A stretch of 64,000 nucleotides of DNA, from positions 7,019 through 71,018 of the forward strand of contig CAVTBB010000003.1 of the NCBI GenBank assembly GCA_963732855.1, in the 5' to 3' direction. A model generated the notes under the pieces. It searched no databases and had not been told where the DNA came from. It worked only from the letters and a program-made list of their open reading frames with translations. This document shows, one piece after another, positions 42,547 to 52,485 of the stretch. Position numbers and translations under genes: made by a program. Numbering within the stretch: position 1 is the stretch's first letter; each line of letters begins with the position of its first letter. Source of the DNA: an uncultured Methanomassiliicoccales archaeon (GTDB lineage Archaea > Thermoplasmatota > Thermoplasmata > Methanomassiliicoccales > UBA472).

Positions 42547-43515
42547 ATGAAGATGAAAGGATCGGGAGAGGCCCAGCAGTTACTGGAGATCAGGTCGGTC
42601 ACGAAACATTACGGAGATTTCGTGGCGCTCAAAGATGTCTCGTTCAGCGTGAGCAGCGGGGAGATCTTCGGATACATCGGACCAAACGGTTCCGGCAAGA
42701 CAACTACGATCAAGATGCTGGTGGGGCTGCTGACCGATTTTGAAGGAGACATACGTTTCCAAGGCAATTCCATTCGAGACAATAAGATGCTGATCAATAA
42801 GGAGCTTGGATATCTGCCACAGAACATCGGATTCCAAGAATGGAGGACGGTGGACCACGCGCTCTCCACCTTCGGACGCCTGTCCGGAATATCGGAGAAC
42901 GAGCTTGATTCCAGCATTAGGACGGCACTTGAACGGGTCGGCATATCTGACCTCAGGCACAAGAAGATCAATCAGCTGTCAGGCGGAACGGTGCAGAAGG
43001 TAGGCATGGCGCAAGCCATATTGCACCAGCCTTCTGTACTGATACTTGACGAACCAATGACGGGCCTGGACCCCACCGCCCGCTTCGAGTTCAAGAAGAT
43101 ATTTCATGACCTCCGGAAGGAAGGGTCGACCATTCTGTTCTCATCGCATATCTTGAGCGATGTTCAGGATCTTGCAGACCGGATCGGCTTCCTTAGCCGC
43201 GGCCACCTTGGTTATGTCGGATCGATGTCGGAGATCGAAGAACGGGTCAACGCTCCCAAGCAGGTCGAGATAATATTGGCTGCCGGCTCTATCCCCTGGT
43301 CAGGATCAGAGCTCAAGGATGGGATCGAGGTCATCGGTCGACCCGAGCCTGGACGCTTCATCATTTGCCTGACACCGGGAGCTGATCTGGATCAGGTGAT
43401 CGACTCGCTGATACGGGACATACTGGCGCATGGTTGCCGGATCCGCAAGATCGCTCCAATCGTTCCTACGCTCGAGGACATCTACGTCAACTATCTGGCA
43501 GGGGTGAAGGCATGA
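42547..43515 (+). CDS. ABC transporter ATP-binding protein
   Basis: The product has Walker A GPNGSGKTT, the signature LSGGTVQK and Walker B LILDEP. Confidence 0.9.
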   Translation: MKMKGSGEAQQLLEIRSVTKHYGDFVALKDVSFSVSSGEIFGYIGPNGSGKTTTIKMLVGLLTDFEGDIRFQGNSIRDNKMLINKELGYLPQNIGFQEWRTVDHALSTFGRLSGISENELDSSIRTALERVGISDLRHKKINQLSGGTVQKVGMAQAILHQPSVLILDEPMTGLDPTARFEFKKIFHDLRKEGSTILFSSHILSDVQDLADRIGFLSRGHLGYVGSMSEIEERVNAPKQVEIILAAGSIPWSGSELKDGIEVIGRPEPGRFIICLTPGADLDQVIDSLIRDILAHGCRIRKIAPIVPTLEDIYVNYLAGVKA

Positions 43516-44168
43516 ACCTTGGTCTGCTATTCCGGGACGAGCTCAAGGGCTTTTACAAATCCAAGGTCATGCTCACGTTATGGGTAGGGCTGCCGCTGCT
43601 CACCCTGATAATCTATTTCGCCTCGCCGACCAGCCAGGGGATGTCGCTCGCTTCGTTCACAGCCATCATCATCGGGTCCATCGGCGGAATGCTGGCGGCG
43701 GCGATGCTCGTATCATCGATAATCACTGAGAAAAGCAGGCACGTTTTCGACCTTTTCGTCATTCGGCCGGTTAAGCGCAGTGACATCGTGCTGTCCAAGT
43801 TCCTGGCCACATATGTGTGCGTGACCGCAGCGGGCATCATTGCGCTTGTGTTCGGCATCGTTTTCGATCTAGTCCGGAATGGCTCACTCCAGACGGATAT
43901 CTTATCGGTCTCGTTCAACGCCCTTATCATGGCCATATCGATGACCGCCATCGCCTGCTCCGCCGGGGTCCTGATCGGGTTCTTGGCCAATACGATGCTC
44001 ACAGGAATCGTCCTGGTCATCTACGGGGCGAACCAGCTTTCGGTAGTCGCTGCACTCCCGGGGTTGTTGTTGCCGAACGAACCGCTCCTGCCATTGATCC
44101 CCGGGATAGCTATCTCGGTTGTCCTACTGGCCCTTACAATAAGAATGTTCAATCGCAAGCAGCTCTGA
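43512..44168 (+). CDS. ABC-2 type transporter permease
   Basis: It has six hydrophobic segments. Its ATG overlaps the ATPase TGA (ATGA). Confidence 0.75.
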   Translation: MNLGLLFRDELKGFYKSKVMLTLWVGLPLLTLIIYFASPTSQGMSLASFTAIIIGSIGGMLAAAMLVSSIITEKSRHVFDLFVIRPVKRSDIVLSKFLATYVCVTAAGIIALVFGIVFDLVRNGSLQTDILSVSFNALIMAISMTAIACSAGVLIGFLANTMLTGIVLVIYGANQLSVVAALPGLLLPNEPLLPLIPGIAISVVLLALTIRMFNRKQL

Positions 44169-44356
44169 CATGAGGGACGTAAGGGCTCCATTGATCTTGT
44201 GCGCAGTCCCGACCAACAGGTCTGGCCGTTTCGGAAGAATGGGAATCCTCCCGATGGTTCGCCTTGGTGTGAGAGTAAGTTGGGATCTGAGAATCATTGC
44301 AAAAGTTTGATTACTCTATCACCCCTGTTCCATCAAGAGAAATATTGAAAATTTAA

Positions 44357-46747
44357 ATGGGGTGCACAATGAAACCATTGTACAAGGTCATCATCGTCCT
44401 TGTTGCAGCGATAGTTCTGGTCTCTGCCCTGGCCAGTGCATTCAATCAGATCGCCACATCGCCGATCCTGACCAAAAACCTGAATACGCAGGACAGAGAC
44501 CAGGATCTGCCCATCCCTCGTGAAATACCGGATTTAAACATCACCGATCCGAAGCAGAACCACCGACTGCCCGATCTAAACGATACGGTCGTACCGCCTA
44601 AGATCGATAACGGCATGGTGCCGAACGCCACCGGTTCCCAAAACCTCACCGGCAAAACGAACGTCAGCGGTACCGTTTTCGTTGATCAGAACGGGGACGG
44701 GATCGCGGACCCGGGAGAAGTACAACCGAACGTAGGGGTGGAGCTGTTCGATCAGAACGGGACCTTGATAGCAACCACCCAGACCGATGAGAATGGCAAC
44801 TACACGTTCACTGGGATCGATCCCGGAAAGTATAATGTCAGCACATTCCCCGGAACCAACGGGAATGTTACCGGGGGCGGCAATCAGACCATAGAAGTGG
44901 TGGATGGACCGATACAGGACGTCGACCTCAACCCGTCCCCCCAAGAGGCCGCCAACCCGACGATCGACACCGTGACCGACATCGTCACATCAATGGACCT
45001 GGTGAAGAAGGGGGTCCTATTCCCTGTCGGTGGGACTGTGGCGACTTCTTCTGGTACACCGATCACGGGGATTCCGGTCATGGTCTTCGTTTCCGAGAAC
45101 AAGACCGCCTCTGAACGTTATTTCATCGGGGCGGGCATCGTTCAGAATGGACAATTCATCGCAAGCTGCATGATCCCCGACGAACTGAAACTGGGCAACT
45201 ACCAGCTGATCGCTCGTTCCCTGGGAAATGACACCTACAAGCCGTCCGAGAGCGATCCACCGGTGAAGGTCACTGACGAGTCCAGGCTCACCATCGAGGC
45301 CGCTGATAGGATGATATTGGGATCGTATCTCGATCTGGTCATCACGCTCAAGGAGAACAGTTCATCGAAACCGGTCATGGGGGCGGAGGTCTCCTATTCG
45401 ATAAGTCATGCCGAAGCAAATCTGATCGGAGGAACGGGCACCACCGACGAAAACGGCATTGTGACCTCGAGCTGGCTCATGATCATTCCTGGCAATTACA
45501 CCATCTCCGTCGCTTTCAAAGGAAACTCCGATCTGTATGATACAAAAGAGAACAAGACCGTTACCGTGCTCGATATCGAGGTCGATACCTCACCCGAGTA
45601 CATGGTCAGAGGCTATGACAACAGACTATACGTCCTGGTCCATGCGTCGGAACTGCCAGTCCCGAACAAGACCGTGATCGTGTATCTCGAGGAATACGCT
45701 GTTGGGATCTATGAGACGGATGCTGATGGACGCTTAAATGCCACCGTCCCAGTGCCGTATTATCAGCCGCTGGGCACCTGTCACATGACATTCGCGATAA
45801 ACTCTGTTAAAAGCTGCCAGAATATTTTGACGGTCATGTCCATGACCACGATGCTGGTCAATGTCGATGGGAACAATGTCAATGCCACGCTGCTTGACGA
45901 TCACAACCGGACCATGCTCGAAATGCCGTTAGTACTGAAAAAATCAGATCAAACCGCCGTGGACATCGCGACCAGCAGGGTCGGTGCAGAATTTTCTCTG
46001 AAAGAAGACGTGGAGGCGGACTACACCGTTCTGTTCAACGGGACATCGATCTATGTGGCCTCTTCGGCGATCGTGCACTACTCTCCGACGGGATTGGGAC
46101 AAGGCATAGACTGGTTAATTATTGGAGCGCTGGGCGTGATCACCGCGGCGGTAGTGGTGGGATTCCTGATATTCCGCCGGCGAAAAGATGTGGCACCGGT
46201 CGCGCAAGAAGCAGCGCCATTTCTGCCATCGCAGATGACGAGGCTACCGACGTCCCCGTACGGCCTTACCTTCCCTCAGATTGACGATGGGATGCCCCCG
46301 GTCTGGGGGGAGAATGAACCATTGCTCTTCCATATCTCGGGGGGATTGGGGGAAGTACAACTGGAATTGGACGGGAACGGTTCCAAGGTGGACCTGGATT
46401 CTGGTTCAGGATCATATATAGTGACGTTCCAGAAGGGAGAGCACCTCATCTCTGTGACCGGCCCCCTGGGGACGACCGCGGTAATGGTCCGGGTGGTGAA
46501 CTACCGGGAAGAGACCGTCCGTTTGTACCGTTCGGCATTCGATACCTGGAATACCGAAGGCAACGGTATATCCGATTCAATGACCCCGAGAGAACTGCAG
46601 TCAGCAATCGAGAGGCGGCTGGACTGTTCAATGCACGGACAATTAGATGTGGTAATATCCCTATTCGAGATCGCCCAGTTCAGCCAACGGCCCATCGGTC
46701 GGCCGGAGTATGAAAGCATGTTCCGAGCATCGGACAAGGTGAGCTGA
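44357..46747 (+). CDS. large membrane-anchored surface protein with SdrD-B/Cna-B-like fold region and cytoplasmic DUF4129-like tail
   Basis: The 796-aa product has an N-terminal anchor (LYKVIIVLVAAIVLVSALA). An SdrD-B-like block (GTVFVDQNGDGIADPGE..ELFDQNGTLIATTQTDENGNYTF) and many N-x-S/T sequons follow. A second TM (WLIIGALGVITAAVVVGFLIF) and a tail with MTPRELQSAIERRL...LFEIAQFSQRP complete it. Confidence 0.75.
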   Translation: MGCTMKPLYKVIIVLVAAIVLVSALASAFNQIATSPILTKNLNTQDRDQDLPIPREIPDLNITDPKQNHRLPDLNDTVVPPKIDNGMVPNATGSQNLTGKTNVSGTVFVDQNGDGIADPGEVQPNVGVELFDQNGTLIATTQTDENGNYTFTGIDPGKYNVSTFPGTNGNVTGGGNQTIEVVDGPIQDVDLNPSPQEAANPTIDTVTDIVTSMDLVKKGVLFPVGGTVATSSGTPITGIPVMVFVSENKTASERYFIGAGIVQNGQFIASCMIPDELKLGNYQLIARSLGNDTYKPSESDPPVKVTDESRLTIEAADRMILGSYLDLVITLKENSSSKPVMGAEVSYSISHAEANLIGGTGTTDENGIVTSSWLMIIPGNYTISVAFKGNSDLYDTKENKTVTVLDIEVDTSPEYMVRGYDNRLYVLVHASELPVPNKTVIVYLEEYAVGIYETDADGRLNATVPVPYYQPLGTCHMTFAINSVKSCQNILTVMSMTTMLVNVDGNNVNATLLDDHNRTMLEMPLVLKKSDQTAVDIATSRVGAEFSLKEDVEADYTVLFNGTSIYVASSAIVHYSPTGLGQGIDWLIIGALGVITAAVVVGFLIFRRRKDVAPVAQEAAPFLPSQMTRLPTSPYGLTFPQIDDGMPPVWGENEPLLFHISGGLGEVQLELDGNGSKVDLDSGSGSYIVTFQKGEHLISVTGPLGTTAVMVRVVNYREETVRLYRSAFDTWNTEGNGISDSMTPRELQSAIERRLDCSMHGQLDVVISLFEIAQFSQRPIGRPEYESMFRASDKVS

Positions 46748-46752
46748 GCCCA

Positions 46753-47922
46753 ATGGAATTCTGGAGCAAAGCGGCAGGCGATGCTGACGGAGGGACGGCG
46801 GTCCGCAGGAAGGTCCTGTTGGTGGTGTTCATCACCGCCGCGATCGTGCTCATGGCGGCCGGGGTATTGATGGTCCTGAGCCCGTCAGGAAGCCGGTTCA
46901 ACCTCTGGTTCGTGTTTCCAGGTGTTTGCACAATGGCAGGATGCTATCTCGCATCCGGACTGATAGGCGCAATGGCAAAGGGCAAATTGGCTGATTCTTT
47001 GCACTCAGGCATCCAGGTTCTGACCCTGGCTCTCCTGCTGGGGTTGCTCGCCATCTTCTTTCCAAACGCGCCGAAAGGGGCACTCGGTTTCGGTCTGATG
47101 CTGATGTTGACCGGGGGCTTGAACTTGGTCGCCTTCGTTGCCAAAGCATACTCGGATCATTATTGGCTAGTAGGGAGGGCTATCGTGATCATGATGCTGG
47201 GCCTTACCCTTGAGATGGGTGTCGCCCTGACGACCGTCTCTGATATCCTGAGAGGTATACCGCTAATGGTGGCGATCATCATAGCGATGCTGTCATTGAC
47301 GGGGATACTGCAACACCACAGCAACTCGACCGCGCGGTTGATCGGCCGTTTCTTCCGAAATGCCTCCAACATGATCACAGTGACGGTGGTCCTGACCCTG
47401 GTTTTCGTTTATGCCCTGAAGTTGAGAAGTGAGATCGCCCAGAAGGCACCCGAGCAGACCCTGCTAGCAGAGTGGATCGTTCTGGCCGTTGTGATCATCG
47501 TGGTGGGATACAAGTTCTTCTCCTTCTTCCGTTCCAGGGAAAAACCTCAGGATTTCTGTGACACACGCAAACTGGTCCAGTCGATATATCATGACAGGGG
47601 CGATACCGGCTACGCCCAGAGCGTGGTGGACCAGTTCATCGTCGAGGGCAAGAGGGAACCTCTTGTGGTTCTACTAACGACGGTTCTGGTACAAGGCCGA
47701 CTGAACCCTTTTGAGGTAGAGAGGATCATTGGAGGCGTGGTCCGTTACAATTCCAAAGAACAAAGGTTCGCCTTCCGGTGGGCCTTGGGCAACGAATTGG
47801 CGACGATCAGAGAAGAGAGGACAAGGATAGCGTTCGATGCGCTCGATCAGACGGCACAGATCCTAGGCGCTGGCTATCTTATGTCCAATCGTGCCGACCC
47901 GACCAGGATCGGAGAGGGATAG
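46753..47922 (+). CDS. polytopic membrane protein with C-terminal soluble domain
   Basis: The 389-aa product has about 8 hydrophobic helices followed by a ~130-aa hydrophilic region. It starts 5 nt after the preceding gene. Confidence 0.6.
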   Translation: MEFWSKAAGDADGGTAVRRKVLLVVFITAAIVLMAAGVLMVLSPSGSRFNLWFVFPGVCTMAGCYLASGLIGAMAKGKLADSLHSGIQVLTLALLLGLLAIFFPNAPKGALGFGLMLMLTGGLNLVAFVAKAYSDHYWLVGRAIVIMMLGLTLEMGVALTTVSDILRGIPLMVAIIIAMLSLTGILQHHSNSTARLIGRFFRNASNMITVTVVLTLVFVYALKLRSEIAQKAPEQTLLAEWIVLAVVIIVVGYKFFSFFRSREKPQDFCDTRKLVQSIYHDRGDTGYAQSVVDQFIVEGKREPLVVLLTTVLVQGRLNPFEVERIIGGVVRYNSKEQRFAFRWALGNELATIREERTRIAFDALDQTAQILGAGYLMSNRADPTRIGEG

Positions 47923-47923
47923 A

Positions 47924-48898
47924 ATGGAGATCTCAGAATTCAGGCAACGTTCTAAGAACATAATCGATGCGACCGGCGGGGTGTTCGTGGGGGACGAGCT
48001 CATCCTTAGAAAGCTCCTATGCGCGGCGCTTGCGAATGGCCATGTGCTTTTCGAAGACAAACCGGGACTGGGCAAGACCCTGCTGGCCAAAGTGTTTGCG
48101 AAGGTCACCGGATGTAATTGGGGCAGGGTCCAGTTCACGCCCGACCTGATGCCCATGGACATCCTCGGTACGAGGATCTGGAGGGCGAAGACCTCGGAAT
48201 TCGTGCTGGAGAAGGGACCGGTCTTCACCAACATCCTCCTGGCGGACGAGATCAACCGTTCCCCGCCCAAGACCCAGTCGGCCTTGCTGGAGGCCATGGA
48301 GGAACGTCAGGTAACGATCGAGGGAACCACCCATCAACTGACCAAACCGTTCTTCGTGATCGCCACCCAAAACCCCATCGAGCAGGAGGGGACGTTCCCG
48401 TTGCCAGAGGCGCAGATGGACCGGTTCCTGCTCAAGATGGCGACCGGCTACGTCAAGACCACGCAATTGGAGAGCGAGATCCTACGCCGCCGCATAAGGT
48501 GGCAGGCCGACGATCCGGTGGACCGGTTGGTCCCCGCCATGGACCAGGCCAAGTTCGTAGAGATGCAGGAACTAGTGGAGAAGGGAGTCTATGCAGATGA
48601 CCAGATCCTCGATTATGTGAGCACGATCGTGCGCGCGACAAGGGAGCACGCGGCGGTGGAGGTGGGTGCCAGCCCAAGGGGTTCCCTTTCACTCTTGAAG
48701 GTCTCTAGGGCCCATGCGGCGATGATGGGGCGGGATTTCGTTACGCCAGACGACGTGAAGCTCTTCGTCCATGAGGCGCTATGCCACCGCATTATCATGA
48801 AAATGGAGTACGAGATCGACAACCGTGTCACGCCCCAATCGGTGGTCGACACGATAGTCGCCCAGACACCGGTGCCCAAGGACTTCGACCGGAAGTGA
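47924..48898 (+). CDS. moxR: MoxR-family AAA+ ATPase
   Basis: The product has Walker A EDKPGLGKT, Walker B ILLADEINRSPPKTQSALLEAMEERQVT and FFVIATQNP. Confidence 0.92.
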   Translation: MEISEFRQRSKNIIDATGGVFVGDELILRKLLCAALANGHVLFEDKPGLGKTLLAKVFAKVTGCNWGRVQFTPDLMPMDILGTRIWRAKTSEFVLEKGPVFTNILLADEINRSPPKTQSALLEAMEERQVTIEGTTHQLTKPFFVIATQNPIEQEGTFPLPEAQMDRFLLKMATGYVKTTQLESEILRRRIRWQADDPVDRLVPAMDQAKFVEMQELVEKGVYADDQILDYVSTIVRATREHAAVEVGASPRGSLSLLKVSRAHAAMMGRDFVTPDDVKLFVHEALCHRIIMKMEYEIDNRVTPQSVVDTIVAQTPVPKDFDRK

Positions 48899-48902
48899 AT
48901 TG

Positions 48903-50192
48903 ATGCTGCCCCGGGTGTCGGCCGAGTTCAAGACCTTCGCCATACTGCTAGTGGTCGGGATATTCCTGGGCAACGTGCTGATCGTCCTGCTCTCACTCAT
49001 CCCGATGCTGTTCGTGGTATTGTCTTTGCTGTACCACTCCCCGACCCGGATGAGCATGTCCCGTCCGATTCCCCGCCTGAACGCCTACATCAATGAGGAA
49101 GTGACGGTGAGTTCAGAGCTCTCTGTGCATGATGGCATCGGTATCGTTACCGTTGGGGACTATTTACCGGCACATTTCCGGATCGCTGAGGGCAACAACT
49201 TCAGGGTCTTCTGGAAATCGGGAAGATCTCTCAAGGTATCAATGAAATACACCGTTGAGTGCACCAAGCGGGGAGTCTATGCCATCGGCAATTCGAACAT
49301 CGAATCCATCAATTTCGCTGGAATCGAGGAGAACGTCATTGTCCCTGCAAATCTGCCAGTGGAACTGTTGGTCCAGCAGCGCCCCATGGACTTACGGAAG
49401 ATGAGGGACCCCAGACTACTATCCAGAGTTCCCATGCCGCTCGGTGCGGCGAGCAAGCTTGGATCGATCACCACCGATTTTAAAGAACTCCGAGAATACC
49501 GCCAGGGAGACCCTTTCCGACATATCAACTGGAAGGCCAGTGTCAGGAACGCGGACCTGGACATAAGCAACCCGCTGGTCAATGAGTACGAGAGGGAAGG
49601 ACAGCAGGTAGTATGGATCTTCCTGGACGCATCTGAGACGATGTCTGTCGGTTCCAGCGTCGAGAATGCTTTCGAGCACGGTGTCAGGGCTGCCAACGGC
49701 CTTTCCCAGTTCTACCTGGCTAGAAATTGCCGGGTCGGCCTGAAAGCATTCAACTCAGGGCGTCAGATCCTTCCGGACGTCGGAAGGAGGCAGCGCGCCA
49801 TGATATCGAAGCTGCTGCTTGGAGTGGAGATGACCAAGCTGAGGGGCATGCTTAAGGACGACGTCCGCTCCTGCCGAGGACACCTGGTCGGTTCCAGCCC
49901 TCTTTTCATCGTGATCACCATGGTCAGACCGGATAACGTCGAGGAGCTCAGAACGGGCATCAGGGAGATGCGCCTTTCCTCCGGCCCTCGCTCCAAGGTT
50001 CTGGTGCTCCATATTGACGGCAACGGTCTGATCCCGACGAACGAGGTGGAGGAAGCTGGCACAATGGCCGCGAACCTGCTGTCGCTCTCTTCCCTGCGGT
50101 CCCTTGCCATCGCCGGTACGACCGTTGTTCCCTGGAACCCGCGGCGGCAGACCCTGAACGATATGATGCTCAAAGGCATGCGGAGGAAGTGA
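48903..50192 (+). CDS. DUF58 domain protein (vWA-like, MoxR partner)
   Basis: The product has two N-terminal TM segments and the DUF58 signature ELREYRQGDPFRHINWKASVR. Confidence 0.85.
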   Translation: MLPRVSAEFKTFAILLVVGIFLGNVLIVLLSLIPMLFVVLSLLYHSPTRMSMSRPIPRLNAYINEEVTVSSELSVHDGIGIVTVGDYLPAHFRIAEGNNFRVFWKSGRSLKVSMKYTVECTKRGVYAIGNSNIESINFAGIEENVIVPANLPVELLVQQRPMDLRKMRDPRLLSRVPMPLGAASKLGSITTDFKELREYRQGDPFRHINWKASVRNADLDISNPLVNEYEREGQQVVWIFLDASETMSVGSSVENAFEHGVRAANGLSQFYLARNCRVGLKAFNSGRQILPDVGRRQRAMISKLLLGVEMTKLRGMLKDDVRSCRGHLVGSSPLFIVITMVRPDNVEELRTGIREMRLSSGPRSKVLVLHIDGNGLIPTNEVEEAGTMAANLLSLSSLRSLAIAGTTVVPWNPRRQTLNDMMLKGMRRK

Positions 50193-50193
50193 C

Positions 50194-50916
50194 ATGGTCG
50201 AACCATTTGAGGAGGACCATCCGAATCTCCTGCCCAGGACGATCACGACCCTCGTGGTCCTGTTGGCCTTTGTAATGAGCGTGATCACGCTTATGAACTA
50301 CGGCTTCTACATTTATCTCAGATCAGGAGCTTCGTCCTTCTTCCGAGCATTGGGCATCGGCTTCAACACCGACATCATCCTGATCGGTCTGATGCTCATC
50401 GTGGTGCTGATTGGGGTCATCAGTGAAAAGAGGCTGAAGGCTACCCTGAGATCCGGATGGGCCATGCTCATTCCGGTATTGCTGTTCTATTCAAAGATCG
50501 ACTGGATGTACCTGATGGGGTTGCCCGGCAATTTCAGTCTGTTTGCAAATGACCTTCCCGAGATCTACGTCTTCCTGAACGGGGCGGCGTTGCTCTGCGC
50601 CAGCCTCCTGCTCCGTTCCCACCTCCACCTGACCTGGGTCAGAAAGATACTGGCCTGGCGTGGGGCGTCGACCGAGGACCTCGATCCTGCCATACGGGGC
50701 AATTTCTTCTTCCTGTTGCTACTGGTGGCGATGTCGGCTGGCGCCGCTGCCCTCATAGGCGCCGCGGTCGGTCTGATCACACCAGCATTCAGCATTGCCA
50801 GCGGAGCGACGGCATACGCGTATCTGATAGTGGGCCTGATCGCAAACGCGGCCATCATCATCGTTTTCGCTCTCTATATCTGGAACAGCAAGAGGGCTTC
50901 GCCCGAAGGGGAATGA
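50194..50916 (+). CDS. hypothetical polytopic membrane protein
   Basis: The 240-aa product has about 6 hydrophobic helices. It starts 1 nt after the DUF58 stop. Confidence 0.55.
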   Translation: MVEPFEEDHPNLLPRTITTLVVLLAFVMSVITLMNYGFYIYLRSGASSFFRALGIGFNTDIILIGLMLIVVLIGVISEKRLKATLRSGWAMLIPVLLFYSKIDWMYLMGLPGNFSLFANDLPEIYVFLNGAALLCASLLLRSHLHLTWVRKILAWRGASTEDLDPAIRGNFFFLLLLVAMSAGAAALIGAAVGLITPAFSIASGATAYAYLIVGLIANAAIIIVFALYIWNSKRASPEGE

Positions 50917-50935
50917 GCCCCGACTGCCGGGATCA

Positions 50936-52485
50936 TCACAAGGTCTTAACACAGGCCAGACTTTCTCTCTTCGGCAGGGTGAAGAAGAATGTAGCCCCTT
51001 TGCCGGGTTCCGATTCGAACCATATCTTGCCGCCATGCCGTTCTACTATCTTCTTGCAGATCGCAAGCCCCATTCCGTTCCCCGGATATTCCTCGCGAGT
51101 ATGCAATCTCTTGAATATCTGGAATATCCGTTCGGAGTGTTCAGGGGGATTCCTATTCCGTTGTCCCGCACAGAGATCGTCCAATCCTTTCCTACAGCCT
51201 GAGCGGACAGATGCACCACGGGTGTATGCCCATTTTGGAACTTCAATGCGTTGGAGATCAGATTCTGGAACAACTGGCCTATCTGCCTCCGATCGCCGAT
51301 CACCTGAGGCAGCGGGTCATGGGTCAGGTTCGTGCCGGTGTCATTGATGTAGACCTCAAGATTCGTGGTCACGATTTCTAGCTCTTCTTCCAGATCGACC
51401 GTTTCAGGGGGGGATGTGCTGCGGTCGATACGGGAGTACATCAGTAGTCCGTCGACCATATCATTCATCCTCCTGGCACCATCGACGGCATATCCGATGT
51501 ATTCGGTCGCTTCATCGTCTAACTTATCCCTGTATCTCTTTTCCAATAACAGAAGGTAGTTTGAGACCATGCGCAACGGTTCCTTCAGGTCGTGGGAGGC
51601 GATGTAGGTGAACTGCTCCAGTTCACGGTTAGATGTAGAAAGTTCCTTGGCGTTCTTCTCAATCTCCACCTCGGTGAACCGCTTCTCAACTATCAAGCCT
51701 ATCATCTTGGCCGAAGCCCTCATGTGACTTTTGGCCGCCTCCACCACGAAAGGCGCCCTGGAAATGTAGCTTTGAGCCGCTTTCATAAGCTCTTCCCCAT
51801 CTAGATGGTGCTGGTGGGCGATCTGCAACAGGATCGTCCGATCTTGCGGCGGATCCCCATATCCTATGTTGATGGAACCGATGATCTTACCTCTGGCCAT
51901 GATGGGAACAGCGTAGATGCGAAGCCCACCCGGACATGGCCGGTCCACCGGTCCTTCGGCCTCCTCGATGAGCTGGGTCGATCCACTCCAGCTACGATGA
52001 TGACATAGGAATTCCCCCACTTCCATGTCATTTCCTTCATCATCATTCCTAAAATTATGGTCCATATATCGGCACCAGTTTGATGTAAAGATGCCCATGG
52101 CGCATGTGCCATCATATTCATAGACCGCTGCAGAAGTACCCAGAAGGCTCAATGCATCAAGAATGGTCTCTTCCAGAACAACATTACCGACCGCTTCCAA
52201 GATCAGGTGCCGCTTATTATCTTCCCCGCCCAGGGCCCGGGCCTTCCCTTCTGCGGCCTTCCTACCCTCAAGCTCGCGAGAGGAGTCCGCTGACCTAAGT
52301 TCATTCCGGCACGCACCAATCTGAATTGGATCTTGCTTATCCCCGATCTTCGCCAGACAAGAAGTTACAATATGATGTCCCATGATTCTCTCTCCGACCT
52401 CAAGGTCCCATCGAGTCGCAGTGACCATGATCTGATTTCTATGAAGTATGAAAGAAGGTGATATTTCCTCTTTCCTGGGGCTCAA
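50936..52485 (-). pseudogene. sensor histidine kinase (Cys-containing PocR-like sensor, HisKA, HATPase_c) with a single-base frame shift in the ATPase domain
   Basis: The HisKA motif is FTYIASHDLKEPLR. The HATPase N-box region ends in [11 protein letters not shown] in one frame. [58 protein letters not shown] is in another frame. The join is at a C5 run (plus-strand GGGGG, 51144-51148) and the span is 1550 nt, which is 3n+2. Confidence 0.85.

Follow-up and report, generated by a model that had tools for sequence, protein, structure and literature searches.

Extent and composition of a MoxR-DUF58 gene cassette that includes a surface protein with a DUF4129-like tail in a Methanomassiliicoccales archaeon

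Do the seven consecutive plus-strand genes at positions 42547-50916 of a 64,000-nucleotide (nt) stretch of Methanomassiliicoccales DNA (genome G000, C3:7019-71018; the whole stretch is referred to below as the window) encode a single machine, and what would such a machine do? In order, the genes specify an ATP-binding cassette (ABC) transporter ATPase and an ABC-2 permease (g1 and g2), a large surface protein (g3), a polytopic membrane protein (g4), a MoxR-type AAA+ ATPase (g5), a DUF58 protein (g6) and a second polytopic membrane protein (g7). An initial annotation, made from the sequence alone, had proposed that all seven form a dedicated system for the maturation or remodelling of a cell-surface complex. 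Few other gene sets of unexplained function are as widespread and conserved in bacteria and archaea as the MoxR-DUF58 modules that have a DUF4129 or TgpA partner, and next to no literature exists on DUF4129, the domain being essentially unstudied. In the present analysis the locus divides, with high confidence, into two plus five genes, of which g3-g7 (44357-50916) form one predicted five-gene operon, and the boundary of the unit is thereby set at five genes, not seven. The five genes are an enzyme-less form of a known, computationally described gene set, not a new kind of system; the ABC-2 genes g1 and g2 lie beside them, are unrelated to them and probably make up a separate transcription unit.

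Extent of the unit

The membrane protein g4 served to trace the cassette through the order. Of 101 genomes, 15 gave a match to it, representing 8 of the 31 genera; one of these matches (G039) is weak and partial, with no cassette at the fetched locus, which leaves 14 cassette-bearing genomes. Up to 20 kb was taken around each match for synteny. Wherever the locus was long enough for gene order to be judged (13 loci, 8 genera), it was g3-g4-MoxR-DUF58-g7, with junctions that overlap or span at most 10 nt. A g4 profile searched against 301 genomes of the phylum gave weak matches in four genomes, all from another family (f10) of the same class. The loci of these four genomes encode a short protein of ~390 amino acids (aa), a g4-like protein, MoxR, DUF58 and a small polytopic protein, and the short first protein comprises a signal peptide, a ~120-aa ectodomain, a transmembrane (TM) helix and a g3-like tail. 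Since g3-g7 are colinear in eight genera of the order and again in another family of its class, synteny extends well beyond the MoxR-DUF58 pair, and in this respect the initial annotation is supported.

The packing of the genes in the window has the same character. The g3/g4 spacing is 5 nt, those of g4/g5 and g6/g7 are 1 nt, and that of g5/g6 is 1 nt to a TTG at 48900 or 4 nt to an ATG at 48903; a base-by-base reading agreed with the tiny and overlapping junctions of the initial annotation, and all seven open reading frames (ORFs) were recovered where it had placed them. Motifs resembling Shine-Dalgarno (SD) sequences (GGAGG/GGTGA-like) precede each of g4-g7. No SD-like motif precedes g3, which has an A/T-rich stretch upstream instead.

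The ABC-2 pair lies outside this unit. The ATPase gene g1 (42547..43515; 322 aa; ABC_tran, E 1e-31) and the permease gene g2 (43512..44168; 218 aa, six TM helices; ABC-2 permease (ABC2_membrane) families above cut-off) overlap by an ATGA at 43512-43515, and a 188-nt non-coding gap (44169-44356) separates the pair from g3. When the g2-g3 intergenic regions of three congeners were aligned, the sole well-conserved stretch was the block at 44289-44316 on the plus strand, an A/T-rich, promoter-like element of 28 nt (GAGAATCATTGCAAAAGTTTGATTACTC) that has no second copy in the window and spans the positions 53-80 nt ahead of the ATG at 44369. We infer that this element is the cassette's own promoter region, with a candidate transcription factor B recognition element (BRE) and TATA box. 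The ATG at 44369 (MKPLYK...) is also probably the true start of g3, in place of the ATG at 44357 (MGCTMKP...) four codons earlier, because a congener has kept this start and the protein then begins with a canonical signal peptide.

Phyletic pattern separates the two parts as well. Among the loci compared, an ABC-2 pair stands beside the cassette only in congeners (L018, L020), and in all three congeners whose locus covers that side, pair and cassette are adjacent and share a strand. The g2-type permease family occurs in 30 of the 101 genomes of the order. Outside the genus, it was found in 4 of 10 cassette-bearing genomes vs 22 of 87 others (Fisher p = 0.45, in a test that counted 14 cassette-bearing genomes), and in the four non-congeneric genomes with both permease and cassette the two are on different contigs. 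An all-against-all comparison of flanking ORFs found no gene beyond the five that was common to at least three loci. The exporter, which the initial annotation had included in the system, thus adjoins the cassette only within the genus and shows no association with it elsewhere, and a seven-gene unit that includes the exporter is rejected as largely refuted by this phyletic pattern.

On the downstream side of the cassette, a convergent histidine-kinase gene ends a few tens of nt from the g7 stop (50916-51046), a space into which a terminator hairpin would not fit. This gene is not kept beside the cassette in other genomes.

The five components and their counterparts

The first gene of the operon, g3 (44357..46747), encodes a predicted type-I membrane protein of 796 aa in which Pfam recognizes SdrD_B, Big_1 and CarboxypepD_reg beta-sandwich domains. 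In the AlphaFold2 (AF2) model (mean predicted local distance difference test score (pLDDT) 75; 80-95 inside domains), an N-terminal helix that resembles a Sec signal peptide (MKPLYK, a hydrophobic core, then ASA followed by F) precedes a disordered linker (residues 33-99) and a sequon-rich stalk of about five macroglobulin (MG)/immunoglobulin (Ig)-like beta-sandwich domains (101-575). After a TM helix (587-606) and the residues RRRK, the predicted cytoplasmic part consists of a further beta-sandwich (636-714) and a four-helix bundle, the probable DUF4129 domain (716-795). Foldseek matched the stalk only to generic macroglobulin/complement-type beta-sandwich arrays. The ectodomain contains 20 N-x-S/T sequons against 6.6 +/- 2.3 in shuffled sequences, 0 of 2000 shuffles reaching 20, and the tail contains one; this asymmetry supports a topology with the ectodomain outside and the tail inside. 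Of the label 'glycoprotein' given at first, the excess of ectodomain sequons over shuffles stands, and glycosylation itself is a prediction.

The tail of the window protein matches the DUF4129 family PF13559 only weakly (E 0.011, 16.2 bits, below the cut-off of 24.8), yet 9 of 11 orthologous tails match it (best E 2.6e-6), and full-length g3 orthologues score 20-25 bits for DUF4129. The helical bundle is, by these profile comparisons, probably a divergent DUF4129, and the 'DUF4129-like tail' of the initial annotation was well named. No match to PF11992 (TgpA_N/DUF3488) was found in g3, which has only the signal peptide and one TM helix.

What varies most across the cassettes is the ectodomain. 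Longer g3 orthologues (1016-1124 aa) show a transglutaminase motif in a full-length alignment, and Pfam detects Transglut_core in the g3 orthologues from five further genera (E 1e-12 to 1e-26) and no Transglut_core domain in g3 of the window. The closest solved relative of the orthologues' domain is TgpA of Pseudomonas aeruginosa (6g49, E 2e-8). Four loci (G043, G014, G002 and G031) have an intact Cys-His-Asp triad and two (G099 and G095) a degenerate one; the domain is absent from five, those of the window genus and G081, in which the place of this transglutaminase head is taken by a disordered linker or by additional beta-sandwiches. In the MoxR tree, head-less cassettes form one clade (95/95) inside the clade of g3-g7 and its orthologues, termed cassette A (98/97), and head-bearing cassettes form an unresolved grade around it; a single loss would be the simplest reading of the absence of the head in the window clade. 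With high confidence, cassette A belongs to the TgpA-type branch of the wider gene set, a branch in which a transglutaminase-like head is displayed by the first protein on an Ig-like stalk; in the window clade, what is left of that protein is the stalk, predicted to be glycosylated, with the TM helix and the cytoplasmic tail. One archaeal order thus holds a natural head-loss series, from a presumably active head through a dead one to none, with the other cassette genes intact. The conserved job of the cassette is not catalysis by the head, because the head is active, dead or absent while all five genes are intact. Across lineages the ectodomain takes the states of enzyme plus stalk, dead enzyme plus stalk, stalk only, short stub and nothing. 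The g3 ectodomain is highly variable between lineages and the tail is conserved; judging from these orthologues, the ectodomain is a lineage-specific, exchangeable add-on.

Lateral transfer of the cassette is suggested by G081: the MoxR tree places its cassette as sister to that of the window genus, although the two genomes are classified in different taxonomic families. In G081 the DUF58 gene of the cassette is split into two ORFs of 226 and 203 aa (L021:12220-13508).

The MoxR protein g5 (47924..48898; 324 aa) is the only fully soluble component among g3-g7. It matches AAA_3 (E 5e-64; 214.6 bits, cut-off 27) and AAA_lid_2 (E 2e-23; 82.5 bits), and its Walker A (PGLGKT), Walker B (LLADEINR), ATQNP and SPRG motifs are kept in all orthologues. 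Directly downstream, with a spacing of 1 nt, g6 (48900..50192; 430 aa) matches the DUF58 family PF01882 (E 1e-9; 38.1 bits against a cut-off of 23.4). Because this protein has a TM hairpin at its N-terminus (segments 6-24 and 26-44) and zero sequons in 430 residues, it is most simply read as cytoplasmic. Its vWA-like metal-ion-dependent adhesion site (MIDAS) motif (DxSxS) is degenerate, reading DASET in the window (residues about 241-247, 49620-49640) and DCGPG, DAGPQ, DAGRR, DGGRG, DARER or DDSER in orthologues; throughout cassette A the first Asp alone is kept from the motif, together with a Met further downstream.

The two remaining membrane proteins belong to unnamed families. The AF2 model of g4 (46753..47922; pLDDT 76) shows eight TM helices and, at residues 271-370, a helical C-domain of ~100 aa on the cytoplasmic side. 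Neither g4 nor 49 of its relatives matched a family in Pfam or NCBIfam, PF11992 included, and a Foldseek comparison of the model with the PDB gave no fold match (best E 0.43). An exhaustive HMMER search of 1.84 billion proteins recovered 332 representative clusters, nearly all of 360-430 aa, and by this measure the family is small and coherent. One relative, 68% identical to g4, is listed with PF27715, an accession missing from the Pfam copy used; the family may have been named very recently. The last gene, g7 (50194..50916), encodes a 6-TM protein of 240 aa, likewise of no Pfam or NCBIfam family. Its orthologues lie downstream of DUF58 as the last gene in all complete loci, and polytopic analogues occupy the same position in family f10, in the second cassette described below, in Streptomyces and in haloarchaea (DUF7519). 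A Pfam scan of 21 position-5 proteins found no common family, and DUF7519 in only two haloarchaeal proteins. Positions 2 and 5 are nevertheless membrane proteins in every cassette type compared.

Exactly two AAA_3 genes occur in the genome of the window, the second ~43 kb downstream and outside the window. It belongs to a second cassette (cassette B; L029 8211-12463, G000:C3 about 96.5-100.8 kb) with the gene order of cassette A: a DUF4129 protein of 292 aa with four TM helices (E 2.5e-9), a 205-aa protein that combines two TM helices with a helical domain in the cytoplasm, MoxR and DUF58 at positions 3 and 4, and a 6-TM protein (183 aa). Its MoxR and DUF58 are 50% and 31% identical to their cassette A paralogues. 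In the MoxR tree the two cassettes fall in separate clades; that of cassette A also contains family f10, and that of cassette B the Streptomyces and Haloferax proteins. Cassette B is likewise patchy (15 of 101 genomes), is colinear in seven further genomes, and stands together with cassette A in six genomes. A genome that carries both a large cassette and a small paralogous one provides a built-in comparison for genetics or proteomics. In G056 (G056:C8:57800-77799), cassette B lies only ~4.5 kb upstream of cassette A, and the g3 orthologue and MoxR of that cassette A are each split into two overlapping ORFs, which may reflect gene decay or errors in the assembly of this metagenome-assembled genome.

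Similar arrangements occur in annotated plasmids of distant organisms. The Streptomyces plasmid NZ_CP109509 carries a colinear DUF4129 - hypothetical (2 TM) - MoxR - DUF58 - hypothetical (4 TM) series. Haloferax gibbonsii pHGLR2 and Halomarina plasmids carry DUF4129 - hypothetical - DUF58 - hypothetical with a convergent MoxR, and a Rhizobium plasmid carries DUF4129 - DUF4350 - MoxR - DUF58 - SpoIIM - RDD. In the Salinibaculum plasmid NZ_CP129994, a 1011-aa TgpA-domain protein that combines a TgpA_N fragment, Transglut_core and DUF4129 is followed by DUF7269, DUF58 and DUF7519, with MoxR close by. The cluster of DUF4129, membrane protein, MoxR and DUF58 that the initial annotation had named is therefore real, being present in annotated Streptomyces and haloarchaeal records. 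With high confidence, g3-g7 are the Methanomassiliicoccales version of a widespread cassette of the form 'DUF4129-tailed protein - X - MoxR - DUF58 - polytopic Y'.

Proposed mechanism and rival explanations

The best explanation of the locus, to which we give somewhat better than even credence, is a five-gene operon of the TgpA-type branch with a membrane-tethered MoxR-DUF58 machine that sets the state of the ectodomain. Its mechanistic part is held with moderate confidence, and we infer every physical contact in it as well as the direction of information flow. The conserved activity is placed at the cytoplasmic face of the membrane because the g3 tail, the g4 C-domain, the anchored DUF58 and the soluble MoxR are constant while the ectodomain is exchanged. 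DUF58, anchored by its TM hairpin, would act as a vWA-type adaptor holding a MoxR hexamer under the membrane, and MoxR would thereby be brought next to two cytoplasmic parts, the helical domain of g4 and the g3 tail with its beta-sandwich and DUF4129 bundle. If MoxR used ATP to remodel either or both of them, the change could be relayed via TM helices, so that the assembly, oligomeric state or activity of the first protein's ectodomain would be set from inside. In the window, the ectodomain would be a non-enzymatic stalk that may scaffold, adhere or sense.

A more general proposal, possible but doubtful, is that the five-gene set is a portable transmembrane chassis, in which a MoxR-DUF58 motor working on DUF4129 tails actuates interchangeable extracellular payloads. 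If so, the Methanomassiliicoccales series with active, dead and no head would represent the chassis working without its enzyme, the conserved function would be ATP-dependent control of surface-protein conformation or assembly across the archaeal membrane, and the 8-TM g4 would be a lineage-specific coupling element.

Several observations weigh against the explanation favoured here. The small cassettes (cassette B and that of Streptomyces) carry almost no ectodomain, so a large ectodomain as such cannot be what the conserved function controls. Positions 2 and 5 are equated between cassette types on gene order and topology only, because homology was undetected: hhalign gave a probability of 12% for g4 vs the position 2 protein of cassette B (Xb) and of 8% for g7 vs its position 5 protein (Yb), and Pfam scans found no DUF7269, DUF7519, DUF4350 or SpoIIM match for g4 or g7. 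The polarity of the head series, as loss and not gain, rests on an incompletely resolved MoxR tree. The degenerate MIDAS implies that canonical metal-mediated ligand binding by the vWA-like domain may be lost. Finally, the cassette is present in only about 15% of the genomes of the order, and this patchy presence points to an accessory function.

Information could also flow in the opposite direction, as in the Esr pathway of Schaalia odontolytica, with the g3 stalk detecting contact or an envelope signal and the TM helix and DUF4129 tail passing it through MoxR-DUF58 to a cytoplasmic response. The Esr precedent speaks for such an outside-in sensor, since EsrA is required for the response of this oral actinobacterium to its epibiont, which is genetic evidence for surface sensing (bioRxiv 10.64898/2026.09.08.750141), and a variable ectodomain with a conserved tail is the pattern expected of a sensor head. 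We nevertheless regard a sensor as rather unlikely here: the loci have only the five genes in common, and beside the cassette there is neither a conserved kinase or phosphatase nor a conserved FHA protein or regulator; the convergent histidine kinase downstream of g7 is not conserved at other loci; the small cassettes are nearly without an ectodomain; and the roles of MoxR and vWA in the Esr model are themselves inferences. That the cassette builds or exports Ig-like surface proteins or proteins of surface-layer (S-layer) type, as a novel secretion or assembly system, is unlikely. A secretion or membrane-remodelling complex was proposed by Makarova et al. (2015, PMC5898192) for archaeal DUF4350-MoxR-vWA neighbourhoods with Ig-like membrane proteins, and g3 is a large Ig-like surface protein with predicted glycosylation. 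However, that model is centred on arCOG01314/DUF4350, which is absent from the window cassette, and has the vWA protein secreted, whereas the window DUF58 is most simply cytoplasmic; g3 carries its own Sec-type signal peptide; and a cassette present in 15 of 101 genomes is too patchy for a general envelope builder.

For the MoxR-vWA-transglutaminase-like (TGL) operon of bacteria and archaea, membrane-proximal degradation was proposed by Zhang & Aravind (2012, PMC3495828), and in a corresponding scheme DUF58 would recruit a substrate, MoxR would unfold it and the transglutaminase-like domain would cleave or cross-link it. The transglutaminase (TGase) activity of TgpA in vitro and the essentiality of tgpA (PMC3507681) fit this scheme, as do the intact triads of four orthologous loci. 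It is very unlikely for the window cassette, however, in that the window g3 is without a transglutaminase and two orthologues have dead triads, yet the five genes are intact and coupled; moreover, the TGase domain, where present, is outside the cell, so MoxR cannot feed it unfolded substrates directly. A peptidase-based mechanism for the window variant is rejected, the enzyme domain being absent. Least probable of all is a seven-gene export-and-maturation machine, in which a substrate exported by the ABC-2 transporter, be it a lipid, a glycan or a peptide, would be attached to the surface protein by the MoxR cassette or used by that cassette together with the protein. Same-strand adjacency in three congeners is compatible with it, as are the weak best matches of g1 and g2 to the gliding-motility families GldA/GldF and the resemblance to GldG of the DUF4350 protein of related archaeal cassettes (PMC5898192). 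Against these stand the 188-nt gap with its conserved promoter-like element, adjacency in no other genus, the different contigs of the two where both are present elsewhere, the absence of the permease from 6 of 10 cassette-bearing genomes outside the genus, its presence in 22 genomes with no cassette (p = 0.45), and the absence of a DUF4350/GldG-like protein from the window cassette.

Comparison with known systems

In the TgpA operon of P. aeruginosa (PA2875 MoxR - PA2874 DUF58 - PA2873 TgpA), PA2875, PA2874 and tgpA were reported by Milani et al. to be co-transcribed, tgpA being essential and its TGase domain periplasmic and active in vitro (PMC3507681). As in g3-g7, MoxR and DUF58 are encoded with a membrane protein whose C-terminus is a cytoplasmic DUF4129, and the enzyme domain, in TgpA as in the head of the g3 orthologues from outside the window, lies outside the cytoplasmic membrane. 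Unlike TgpA, the window g3 is bitopic with an Ig-like stalk, and has neither a transglutaminase nor a polytopic TgpA_N. The window cassette further differs in that its DUF4129 gene comes first, and in having two extra fixed membrane proteins, g4 and g7.

The archaeal arCOG01314 (DUF4350) neighbourhood resembles the window cassette in combining MoxR and vWA/DUF58 proteins with membrane proteins that have extracellular Ig-like domains, and, like it, has been described computationally only. The window cassette differs in having no DUF4350, position 2 being occupied by the unnamed 8-TM family; a Pfam search found no match to PF14258 (DUF4350) in any of the seven window proteins.

Surface proteins with Ig repeats are also encoded with MoxR in actinobacteria. 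The PFNA cluster of Bifidobacterium combines an Ig/FN3-repeat surface protein with MoxR, DUF58/vWA, transglutaminase and Ser/Thr-kinase signalling (PMC8430577), and the Esr pathway combines the Ig-repeat filament EsrA with MoxR, vWA, transglutaminase and Ser/Thr-kinase signalling (bioRxiv 10.64898/2026.09.08.750141). A surface protein with Ig/FN3-like repeats, MoxR, DUF58/vWA and, ancestrally, a transglutaminase are shared with cassette A. By contrast, the Ser/Thr kinase, phosphatase and FHA proteins of these systems are not conserved at cassette A loci, their surface filament is a separate protein anchored by the transglutaminase, and equivalents of g4 and g7 are absent from them.

The haloarchaeal cassette (Salinibaculum, with small forms in Haloferax gibbonsii and Halomarina) has the same five roles, four of them in the same order. 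Its first protein, of about 1000 aa, combines Transglut_core, a beta-sandwich, a TM helix and DUF4129, the architecture of the g3 orthologues from outside the window, although BLASTP found no significant similarity between g3 and the haloarchaeal TgpA-domain protein. It differs from the window cassette in having MoxR on the opposite strand, and DUF7269 and DUF7519, families unmatched by g4 and g7, at positions 2 and 5. The small cassettes (Streptomyces and cassette B) differ in that their X has two TM helices instead of the eight of g4, and in their near lack of an ectodomain. With the window cassette they share an identical gene order, tight packing, a C-terminal DUF4129, a polytopic Y, and an X that consists of TM helices and a cytoplasmic helical domain.

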